This document shows positions 1 to 3,000 of a stretch of 14,810 nucleotides of DNA, one piece after another. The stretch lies in the UHGV virus genome UHGV-1815592; one strand, 5' to 3'. Position numbers: made by a program. Positions within the stretch are counted from its first letter, which is position 1. Every line of letters begins with the position of its first letter. The stretch comes from a virus.

Positions 1-3000
1 TCTTCTTTGCTATCGAAATACCCTAACGATATTGTCTTATTTTTATAACCAACATAAGACTTCCACCTGCCAGTTGGCTTATACCAAGACACTCCAATTG
101 CACCGGATGTGTTTAATCTATTCCCTACAATGTTTCTTGCATTCTGCTCTTCTGTTGCCAGTCTTAGGTTTGAAATCCTATTATCAAGTCTGTTCCCATT
201 TACATGATCAATAAACTTAGGAGGCCATTTTTTGTATACATAGAACCAAGCAAGTCTATGCGCCTTATACAAAACATTATTTATACTAATGCATATATAA
301 CCACCACTAACACCTCCAGCAATACTACCTTTTACTCTTACTACTGAATTTGTTTTTAGCCATTTAAATATTCCTGTTTCTGAGTCATATGATAATGTTG
401 ACAGAAGCTCATCGTGATCAATTAGTTTTTTTATTCGCATAAAGAATATACTTAATAATATATACAGTAAGAACCATTAGTAACGATAACCCTGCTATTA
501 GCTCAGTGATGTAGATGGTCATACGTCAGCCCCTTGTGCATATCGTCTGCCACGCGCAGCAGGTGCATTTGATGCTGTGCAAATCTGTCTGGCTTCATCC
601 TGGTCACATGCAACAAAGTGTCCGTTACAGAACCGCTGGTAAACTGTACCAAGCGAACCAAAACGGTTTTTCGTCACGATGATTTCAGCAAATGGCGCGG
701 CGCTACTGTTCTCATCATATACCGCTTCCCGATAGAGCATGATGATTGAGTCTGCGTCCTGTTCAATGCTTCCTGAATCACGCAAATCTGCGTTTGTCGG
801 GCGTTTGTTTGGTCGCTTCTCAACATCGCGCGAAAGCTGACTCAGGGAGATAACCGGTGTTTTCAGGTCTTTCGCCATCGCCTTCAGGCTTCCGGAGATG
901 TGAGCAATTGCGAGGTCGTTGCGGTCTGCTTTCGGCTTCTCAATCAGGCCAAGATAATCCGCCATGATGAGTGACAGGTTTGGATTTTCCTGCTTATGCC
1001 GTTCTGCGATTGAGCGTATTTCTTCGACCGATAACCGCGAAGCATCGACTACCCATACATCCAAATCTGCAAGCTGACTCATGCCGTTAGCAACACGTGC
1101 CCAGCCCTCGTCATCCATCGATGCAGGATTTCGCAGTACGCTAACCGACATCCTCCCGGCGTTGGCAATGCTTCGCTCTGCAATCTGCAATGCGCTCATT
1201 TCCATTGAGAAAATCAATACCCCGCGCCGGACGTCAGAACCAGGAATAACGCGGCTTGCCACACCTTCGGCAATCTTCAGCGCCAGTTCGGTTTTCCCCA
1301 TACCAGGACGAGCGGCGATAATCACCAGGTCTTCTGCGTTCATCCCTCCAGTGATAGCGTCAAGCTCTTCGATTCCGGTCTTCAGGGTATCTGACTCTTC
1401 TCCGTTCCTCAGACGCCTGTCAAGCGTGTCAGTGTAGTCAGTGATGATTTCCCCTAACCGTACAGGTTTAACCTCGTCACGGGGCTTTCTGATGGCTGAA
1501 AGACGCTTTACAAGTTCATCCATCGCCTGACTCGATGCGTCGATGGTTCCGCTTTGGATTGGTTCACGCATTTCATCCATGATTTCCAGCACCAGACGGC
1601 GGTGATAGTTATCCGCGACCATTCCGGCATATCCCTTCAGGTTTGCGGCACTCGGGCAGTTTTTGCTGGTCATCAGGATTGACGTGAAATGCTCCTCTCC
1701 GCACGCCTCGGCAACCATCAGCGCATCGATTAGGTTTCTGTTTCTCGCCTGCTTGCGAATAACCTCGAAGGCTTTCCGGTAGAGCGGAATTGAAAACGCT
1801 TCCGGCTCCAGCGTTGCCAGAACGTCACTGGCGGTTGGAGTTAATCCACCAATCAGCAGGCCACCGATAACGCTAGCTTCGATATCCTGTCTCATGCAAT
1901 CCCCCTGTCTGCAAACTTCCCTTCCCGAACTCCCGTTAACGAATCTTCCCTCAGCAGGTAATCAAAATCTGCCGTCCAGCCCGTGTCGTTGTCTCCGAAG
2001 TAAAACGGCTTGGCCTGATGCACAAACGCCCTGACATACGCTCTGAAACCGTCCACGTTTGGCGTTTTCAGTTGCGGGATAATTTTCTTCAGGCGGCGTT
2101 TTCGTTTCTCGTTGACCGCAACAGCGTGTGGAAGTCTGTCACCGACTTCGGTGTTGTAGGCGTTCAGGAAGGATTCGTAGTCGATTCGTTCTGCCTTGCG
2201 ACGTTCAGGTTTAACCTGCCCATCGCCATCCCCGTTAGGGGGTAAGGGGGTATTTGTATTTATTGTCTTTTGTATATTGTCTTTTGTGTTTAGCTGACTT
2301 GGCTTATACCCATTAGCCGACTTGGCTAATGTTTTATTAGCTGTTTTAGCTAATGTTAAGCTGTCCTGGCTAATCCACTGAGAAACCACCTTGTTCACTC
2401 CGATTTTCACGCCATCAGCAATGAGGAATTTACGCTCAATAAGCTGGCGCTTGGCAGCGCAAACATGAGTGTGATGAATACCTGTCATGGCTGCTATGCG
2501 TGTTTGTGAGTCGATCCATCGGCTTATTGAATCCGTATGTCTTGCGCATGATAGCGAGCATCACCTTCAACTGCCGGACGGTTAAATCAGCCATCAGCAG
2601 ACTGTCGGTAATCTCGTTAGCAACGCGCATGAAACCATCTTCGGTATCTGCCACGCGATGCTCCACGACCTCCAGTTGAGGCCTGTAATCAGCTAACTTA
2701 ACGACGCCCATGTTTCACTCCTGCTTTGGCTAGTCTGTAAACACCAACAAGGCGCTCTGCGAACGCCCTGTTATTTGCTGCGGCTACCACTAATCCCTCA
2801 GGTGAATCAGGGTGTCGAATCTCTTCTTTTTCCTGGTATTTCTTACGACGTTTTGTCATAATTACTCCTGTGGATTGATCCAGTAATTCCCTCAGAATTG
2901 CATATCAATTTGCTTAAAATCCTCGGTGGCAGCCGGGGATTTTTTCTTTGTGATTTCATCAAGCGCATACTTAAAAGCCCTGCTAATCGGACTGATGTCT

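Follow-up and report, generated by a model that had tools for sequence, protein, structure and literature searches.

The left end of the window, by which we mean the whole stretch of 14,810 nt analysed from the virus genome UHGV-1815592, carries the first part of an HNH endonuclease gene directly downstream of a replicative helicase gene. The window is the early region of a Shiga toxin (Stx)-type lambdoid prophage of Escherichia coli O157, and sequence comparison indicates that the gene rides on a discrete, AT-rich cassette of ~660 bp, made up of a 50-nt leader and a 612-nt open reading frame (ORF). We consider it probable that this is a free-standing HNH-AP2 homing-endonuclease gene which targets the junction at the terminator tR2. 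The gene is a stand-alone ORF, placed in the tR2/ninA spacer where replication genes and nin genes meet, the cassette is sporadically present or absent at this one fixed site among close relatives with the flanks intact, and all genomic features by which the homing-endonuclease class is recognised are present. The following features of the window (coordinates, strand, description) bear on this reading.

1-440 (reading frame 3-440), minus strand: HNH_3 and AP2 endonuclease gene, codons 1-146 of 203 (translation, Pfam, PHROG)
418-522, minus strand: ninA' mini-ORF of 34 codons, hydrophobic, corresponding to HK022_56
441-490, minus strand: 5' leader of the cassette, 50 nt, AT-rich (homology to HNH-less relatives ends at 490/491)
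482-499, no strand assigned: 5' junction of the insertion (alignment of empty and occupied sites, and lambda's own sequence)
491-522, minus strand: upstream arm of the conserved tR2/ninA spacer (ATGACCATCTACATCACTGAGCTAATAGCAGG), belonging to the backbone and not to the cassette (recurs after unrelated gene ends; identical in lambda ren-ninB)
519-1895, minus strand: DnaB-type replicative helicase, upstream neighbour in the same pR-direction operon (Pfam DnaB_C 9.5e-78 and DnaB 4.5e-13; PGAP 'replicative DNA helicase')

An AT-rich block behind the helicase gene

The initial annotation, made from the window alone, had placed an endonuclease ORF with its start at 440 on the minus strand, running off the window, 78 nt after the helicase stop and within a sharply AT-rich block. 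Each of these points holds. The ORF opens with an ATG at 440-438 and stays open for 146 codons up to the left window edge, for which the chance at the local composition is ~2e-6, and the gap to the helicase (441-518) is exactly 78 nt. The sliding-window G/C content is 31-38% over window positions 1-500 and 50-55% in the helicase gene; overall it is 33.4% in the cassette and 52.2% in the helicase gene, with the step at about position 490. A composition of 33% G/C marks the cassette as foreign.

Two complete E. coli records, NJS001 and STEC799, match window positions 1-700 at 100% identity, and the full-length protein was taken from these. The 57 codons and the stop codon that are missing from the window lie 1-171 nt beyond its left edge, and the complete gene comprises 612 nt and encodes 203 amino acids (7829-8440 of the STEC799 locus, hereafter L001; WP_001220560.1, 'HNH endonuclease').

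Insertion into the conserved tR2/ninA spacer

Comparison of the junction with that of relatives lacking the insert, a check proposed in the initial annotation, maps the insertion point to the tR2/ninA spacer. HNH-less relatives align to the window only from 490/491 rightward, and the inserted block corresponds to L001 ~7826/7833 to 8490, that is, 658-665 bp depending on how the junction microhomology is assigned; only the first 490 bp of it are inside the window. Written in the direction of the gene, with a slash for the boundary, the occupied 5' junction reads AATAGCAGG/GTTATCG, the empty site AATAACAGG/CCTGCTGG and the occupied 3' junction, which lies outside the window, GATAAAGG/CCTGCTGG. 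Microhomology of 3-8 nt at the junctions makes the exact boundary ambiguous. The insertion point itself (...CTAATAACAGG / CCTGCTGG...) lies at the 5' foot of the tR2 stem. In the empty site of O157 strain 2149, 28 nt separate the helicase stop from a hairpin and U-run, and the sequence of L001 7782-7832 is joined straight to that from 8491 onward with an overlap of 8 nt.

The empty site equals the ren-ninB spacer of lambda, ~74 nt in length (...TAAAAG ATGACCATCTACATTACTGAGCTAATAACAGG CCTGCTGGTAATCGCAGGCCTTTTTATTTGGGGGAGAGGGAAGTC ATG, the last being the ninB start), and the record of phage Nil2 labels these 83 nt 'ninA' (25 codons), in overlap with the 'tR2 terminator'. Lambda, P22, 933W and hundreds of prophages all have this conserved ~74-nt spacer at the border between their replication and nin genes. 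Its 32-nt upstream arm is the same after at least five unrelated upstream gene ends in the occupied loci and after eight distinct ends in a sample of 120 IMG/VR contigs that carry the ninA start motif, of which one was too short to score and 119 were scored. From these alignments, the insertion point is the conserved tR2/ninA spacer and not a helicase-specific junction, a feature that the initial annotation had missed.

The terminator is kept in occupied sites, with a hairpin of -20.3 kcal/mol, because the last bases of the cassette (GATAAAGG) rebuild the tR2 stem and lengthen it from 8 bp to 10 bp; the TAA stop codon of the HNH gene falls inside the extended stem. We also observed that the 3' end of the cassette, which codes for the KKR of the basic tail described below (L001 7803-7839, 171-198 nt to the left of the window start), provides seven T on the opposite strand directly after the tR2 hairpin. 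Owing to this cassette-supplied T run, the hairpin of occupied sites scores as a terminator in both directions, and the opposite-strand tail of empty sites, GTTATTAAC, is without a long T run.

A fixed 'immunity' substitution at the junction, with G in AATAGCAGG and A in empty sites, was considered and rejected, as the difference is not strict: one occupied site has the A (L013) and one empty site has the G (L140). Two empty IMG/VR sites, L140 and L137, read AATAGCAGG/CCTG and AATAAAAGG/CCTG in place of the usual AATAACAGG/CCTG and match the 5' and the 3' junction sequence of the cassette, respectively. These variants may be footprints of cassette loss or ancestral variants of the target.

The gap between the helicase and HNH genes is not plainly non-coding, because the ninA' mini-ORF spans it. 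Its start codon shares an ATGA with the helicase stop, and it runs 23 nt into the HNH gene; the backbone ninA supplies the first ~10 codons and the cassette supplies the rest. At empty sites, a putative ninA ORF of 24-34 codons runs through the tR2 hairpin. A short ninA-type ORF is found in 118 of the 119 sampled sites despite three different hairpin sequences; one empty site is exceptional in that its ninA ORF is fused to a 109-aa ORF.

A putative HNH nuclease with an AP2-like domain

Pfam HNH_3 (PF13392) matches the fragment encoded in the window with 57.0 bits (E 1.5e-15) and the full-length protein with 56.1 bits (E 2.9e-15), at a gathering score of 24.8 bits. Matches were also obtained to PHROG 99 'HNH endonuclease' (E 4.8e-60) and to the PADLOC 'homing endonuclease' model (E 4e-4). 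By these profiles, the protein is a member of the HNH_3 His-Me finger endonucleases. The AP2 domain is cut by the window edge, and in the full-length protein it scores 28.7 bits (E 1.6e-6), under the Pfam cut-off of 33.3 bits. A precomputed AP2 match is present in many homologues, and a Foldseek comparison of the predicted structure recovers the AP2 fold with a probability of 0.99-1.0 (root-mean-square deviation of 1.1 A over 48 columns to TEM1 and 1.4 A over 51 columns to AtERF1). AP2 membership is thus sub-threshold by profile and supported by the predicted fold. Of the NUMOD4/HNH/AP2 label given in the initial annotation, the HNH part stands firmly and the AP2 part with this qualification; NUMOD4 as a claim of membership is ruled out, with no Pfam match at E ≤ 10 in the full-length protein. 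The N-terminal strands of the model superpose on the N-terminal region of I-HmuI, a resemblance and not NUMOD4 membership. The Pfam scan listed no other HNH family at E ≤ 10, NCBIfam gave no meaningful match for the HNH protein or the ninA peptides, and Pfam gave nothing for the ninA peptides.

The motif D78-H79...N87...N91...N100 aligns with D74-H75...N96 of I-HmuI, and all five residues are invariant across 37 homologues and kept here. The catalytic residues (D-H general base pair, structural Asn and metal-binding Asn) are accordingly intact, and the disrupted HNH motif that the initial annotation had named as evidence against its reading is not what the full-length protein has. In the AlphaFold2 model (mean predicted local distance difference test score, pLDDT, of 89.7), strands at 76-79 and 92-95 and a helix at 97-101 form what is predicted to be a beta-beta-alpha-metal fold. 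Foldseek aligns the model to I-HmuI of Bacillus phage SPO1 (PDB 1U3E) with a probability of 1.0 over 106 columns, which suggests a shared N-terminal, beta-rich DNA-binding region and a shared HNH (His-Me finger) core. At the sequence level the alignment is weak, with an identity of ~20%, and the D-H...N...N residues are common to both.

As a side observation, residues 165-203 (outside the window; L001 7829-7948) form a helical, strongly basic tail of ~40 residues (...KEKYKRTRKRVKKR). This tail is absent from all 36 aligned homologues, which stop soon after the AP2 domain.

A predicted AP2 fold would also suit a non-catalytic DNA-binding protein that uses this domain as a regulator, and certain phages have an HNH protein in their packaging machinery (Kala et al. 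2014, as cited in PMC12315714); a protein of the HK97 gp74 type assists terminase. We regard both roles as highly improbable here, given that the D-H...N...N residues are intact and that the protein is dispensable in near-isogenic phages. The match is moreover to HNH_3 and I-HmuI, and to no other HNH family in the scan described above. A terminase-associated HNH protein was rejected as a candidate since the gene lies between the helicase or other replication genes and the nin genes in every locus, far from the terminase genes.

One cassette behind unrelated replication genes

The cassette is found after the window-type DnaB helicase, after an HK022/P22-type helicase (HK022 and strain ES3), after a toprim primase-helicase (three strains), after lambda-type P and ren (PA28) and after a DnaC-like gene followed by a small ORF (AST240); the genes downstream of it vary among loci as well. 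Homology among occupied loci is confined to L001 7776/7788-8522, that is, to the cassette and both spacer arms, and the cassette boundaries are base-identical in every background compared. Behind these unrelated replication genes, the copies are 97.6-100% identical to one another, and comparison of 11 further copies with the STEC799 copy showed that cassette haplotypes do not track the type of background.

Occupied and empty relatives differ by the cassette and by little else. PA28 (occupied) and 933W (empty) are collinear, with 97.8% identity over flanks of 1.9 kb and 2.3 kb, and the indel is the sole difference. Phages 2851 and WGPS8 match window positions 491-14810 at 99.3% and are without the cassette, in line with the selfish-looking insertion proposed in the initial annotation.

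Among 10 complete copies, no frameshift was found, and codon changes amount to ~9 synonymous and ~9 non-synonymous ones, counts that are too small for a ratio of non-synonymous to synonymous rates (dN/dS) and support only that intact copies show no sign of decay. Other copies are disrupted. In phage 1717 (L021 2377-4818) and in O157:H7 strain 2-6-2, the 2.4-kb insertion sequence (IS) ISEc8 of the IS66 family lies at the 5' edge of the cassette, at a position equivalent to window 481-491, and cuts the HNH gene off from the helicase gene and from pR transcription. Stx2a_F349 has an IS66-family transposase inside the region that matches the window, IS100 interrupts the HNH ORF in one strain (L014), and in other genomes (H103, H107-H110) the cassette is split or shortened. 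Taken together, the invasion of a conserved site, its patchy occupation and the occasional decay of copies are what would be expected of a homing-endonuclease gene.

The same locus structure could in principle arise from an accessory gene of the variable region behind the replication genes that is shuffled passively as a mosaic module by homologous or Red-type recombination in the tR2 spacer, with the nuclease irrelevant to its spread and either used otherwise or slowly decaying. The flanks of 32 nt and ~50 nt are conserved in hundreds of lambdoid phages and would be enough for recombination of the Red type, for which the genes are present; low occupancy (~5%), the IS-disrupted or split copies and the lack of visible co-conversion tracts fit such a module too. 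Set against this, nothing but the cassette was ever found inserted at the exact point among the 119 sampled sites, and its ends are base-identical in all backgrounds, whereas ordinary mosaic joints fall at gene ends. All family-invariant catalytic residues are kept in a reading frame without frameshifts in the 10 complete copies, and the foreign composition is a further point against such a module. We judge passive shuffling to be rather unlikely.

Distribution and occupancy of the site

Searches of 5426 complete E. coli genomes placed the cassette at 138 places in 126 of them, at 95-100% identity, and a further 19 phage records carry it, including the Stx2c phage 1717, Stx2a_F349, WGPS4, WGPS6, PA28, SH2026Stx1 and phi330; the copy of HK022 has 98.9% identity. 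The empty spacer, used as a query, was found at 2912 places in 1989 E. coli genomes (in 1883 of them over at least 80% of the query) and in 380 phage records, including Salmonella P22-like phages. Within the IMG/VR sample, 3 of the 119 sites are occupied and 116 are empty, the latter with three different compensatory hairpin sequences, and no other insert was found at the tR2 point among them. Occupancy of the tR2 site is roughly 3-5%. Uniform presence in all relatives, which would have spoken against an invasive gene, is not seen: only 60 of the 724 genomes that match the window 1-700 query have the helicase-HNH junction. When one genome per species was searched, a close relative of the cassette was found in E. 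coli only, and the phage collection contains no Salmonella phage with the cassette, though 94 Salmonella phage records match the empty-site query.

Patchiness also bears on the idea that the nuclease is a domesticated weapon or helper, kept for damaging competing lambdoid phages and prophages or for stimulating recombination-dependent replication, with spread as a side effect. The gene is missing from approximately 95% of otherwise similar phages, including the near-isogenic 2851 and WGPS8, and independent IS disruptions are tolerated. The position of the gene in the early operon beside the replication genes could suit such a role, as could the weak match to the 'homing endonuclease' model of PADLOC, which features in defence-system catalogues; moreover, various functions have been associated with HNH genes of lambdoid phages, and where such a gene lies does not reliably tell what it does (PMC12315714). 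A weapon of this kind would overlap mechanistically with homing, and sequence alone does not separate the two. Overall we find a domesticated function improbable.

The initial annotation had held free-standing homing endonucleases to be less common in temperate lambdoid prophages than in lytic phages. This argument turns out to be weak, given the number of genomes and phages, among them HK022, that share this one cassette, and given other genes of this kind (HNH, 'NUMOD4 domain' and GIY-YIG) in the early-right regions of several loci. Such homing-type nuclease genes in the replication-nin region were seen at L005 1816-2343, L013 546-1073, L009 252-854 and L011 4651-4658 and upstream. They include a second HNH gene between ninB and an adenine methyltransferase gene, a 'NUMOD4 domain' protein at the same place in another strain, and a GIY-YIG nuclease gene upstream of a replication gene. 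Lambdoid early-right regions thus seem to hold several homing-type nuclease elements.

A chimeric endonuclease gene was observed in the metagenomic Logan contig SRR10380363_203 (L019 3919-4516). Its first 279 nt, from the ninA ATG to about codon 65 of the HNH gene, are 100% identical to the cassette; beyond them the sequence is that of another HNH_3 gene, which overlaps rusA at its end, and the intervening nin genes are missing. Recombination between endonuclease paralogues, with loss of part of the nin region, could explain this, as could a chimera of assembly.

A model for spread by homing

Under the homing reading, the HNH gene would be transcribed from pR together with O and the helicase gene, upstream of tR2, and only after induction or infection, that is, during lytic growth. 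The I-HmuI-like N-terminal region and the AP2 domain would mediate DNA binding, and the protein would nick or cut at or near the unoccupied tR2 site of a co-replicating lambdoid phage. Repair with the occupied genome as template would then copy the cassette in, and the phage's own Red-type recombinase may act on the conserved arms of 32 nt and ~50 nt. Arms of this length are within reach of Red-type recombination, and the same prophage encodes the corresponding genes:

7625-9389, plus strand: gam-bet-exo (Red-type) recombination genes (Pfam Gam 8.8e-63, RecT 2.7e-33, YqaJ 5.3e-30)

Biased inheritance of flanking markers, as the initial annotation suggested for the replication or nin region, is plausible.

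The overlap with the terminator may have a regulatory consequence. Ribosomes that finish the HNH ORF would probably suppress tR2, because the HNH stop codon overlaps its stem, so that translation of the gene would weaken termination. In lambda, moving a translated stop from 28 bp to 5 bp upstream of tR2 lowered termination from ~90% to <10% (Li et al.; PMC4824070). Translation of ninA through the hairpin would be expected to weaken tR2 likewise in empty sites.

A more far-reaching form of the model can be put forward only tentatively. It would have the nuclease specifically recognise the empty tR2/ninA spacer, copy its own gene via Red on 30-50-nt arms and drive the exchange of replication modules among Stx and other lambdoid phages, with the overlap of stop codon and terminator tying read-through into nin-Q-stx to HNH translation.

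Several observations weigh against homing. A consensus scan detected no sigma-70-like promoter on the coding strand of the cassette, and the leader has no clear Shine-Dalgarno sequence or other recognisable ribosome-binding site. The AP2 score stays below its cut-off. The candidate target site is a guess from the insertion point, and cleavage at a distance is common among HNH homing enzymes. Given the conserved arms, ordinary homologous or Red recombination could also transfer the cassette with no part played by its nuclease. The flanking genes diverge right at the spacer ends, which leaves no co-conversion tract to be seen. An occupancy of ~5% and a distribution limited to E. coli suggest weak drive. 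Finally, a literature search on the gene in Stx, lambdoid and HK022 contexts returned no specific study, and no report of cleavage, nicking or homing for the protein or a close relative.

With respect to expression, a promoter or terminator of the cassette's own was also considered and set aside: by eye, the cassette offers only weak promoter candidates (TTACTA-17-TATTAT), the scan found none on the coding strand, and folding of the leader RNA gave no significant structure (z +0.96).

Genomic context of the window

Genes in the pR direction, namely cro, cII, O and the helicase gene, are on the minus strand of the window, and cI, N, cIII, kil, gam-bet-exo and others are on the plus strand. An integrase-family ORF (13914-14810, minus strand) lies at the right window end. 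In STEC799, the HNH gene is followed downstream by nin genes and then by Q and stx2c.

The O-like replication gene (1892-2713, minus strand) has a 2-bp deletion near window position 2497 relative to STEC799, which breaks the frame and leaves the gene as two ORFs, 1892-2488 and 2436-2711. This deletion is absent from all of the 400 complete E. coli records that match (the best identity, 98.8%, corresponds to the gap). It is either a strain-specific inactivating mutation, which would make the prophage replication-defective, or a sequence error.

Relation to known homing endonucleases

I-HmuI is the closest solved structure, and free-standing HNH-AP2 homing endonucleases are the closest family. 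I-HmuI is encoded inside a group I intron and has a C-terminal helix-turn-helix domain. In contrast, the gene described here is free-standing, and its product is predicted to have an AP2 domain and the ~40-residue basic helical tail instead.

The closest functional analogues are the seg and mob genes of T4 and genes of the vibriophage ICP1. The T4 genes are small, AT-rich, stand-alone ORFs between conserved genes, are patchy among relatives and are thought to spread by cutting the empty allele. The seg genes encode GIY-YIG enzymes, and the T4 genes often have their own promoters. The cassette differs from them in that its phage is temperate, that expression would occur only after induction and that the scan detected no promoter. 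T4 is named as the main model (PMC10448857), and proteins with the HNH-AP2 architecture are recognised as a family of homing endonucleases (Magnani et al. 2004, as cited in PMC10448857). The 'IPA-HNH' genes of ICP1 have the same combination of an N-terminal HNH and a C-terminal AP2 domain and are likewise free-standing, occurring sporadically at boundaries of genetic exchange (PMC10448857). They are too divergent for a Pfam HNH_3 match (PMC10448857), whereas the protein described here matches strongly; its host is a temperate lambdoid phage and its site a terminator spacer. Sporadic, apparently mobile HNH genes in lambdoid phages have been noted by Casjens and colleagues (PMC12315714).

The existence of the gene is not new, as it has been in public records since HK022 was sequenced. 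Existing records of 1717, PA28, WGPS4/6, F349 and HK022 call it an 'HNH endonuclease', a 'putative endonuclease' or a 'homing endonuclease'. The deposited copies of HK022 ('putative endonuclease', NP_597900/HK022_57), 1717 ('putative HNH endonuclease', in a record that cites the HK022 'putative endonuclease' NP_597900) and PA28 ('homing endonuclease') have 98.9-100% nucleotide identity over the whole cassette and the same position after the replication genes. These are annotations only, and the records searched contain neither a mapping to tR2/ninA nor a reported activity. The mapping of the site to tR2/ninA and the occupancy survey appear not to have been reported previously in the literature searched.

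Implications for lambdoid phages

The cassette is thus an already-annotated, uncharacterised element of selfish appearance, and what is gained here is a precise map of the cassette and of its site. Should the enzyme really cut at the unoccupied tR2 spacer, classical temperate coliphages, HK022 and the Stx phages among them, would offer a tractable homing endonuclease. With the target present in lambda itself, homing, marker co-conversion and dependence on Red would be open to standard lambda genetics. Such cleavage would also provide a concrete mechanism for recombination at the boundary between the replication and nin modules, the boundary that separates the early-region variants among the Stx2 phage records matched here, occupied in 1717, WGPS4/6, F349 and PA28 and empty in 2851 and WGPS8.

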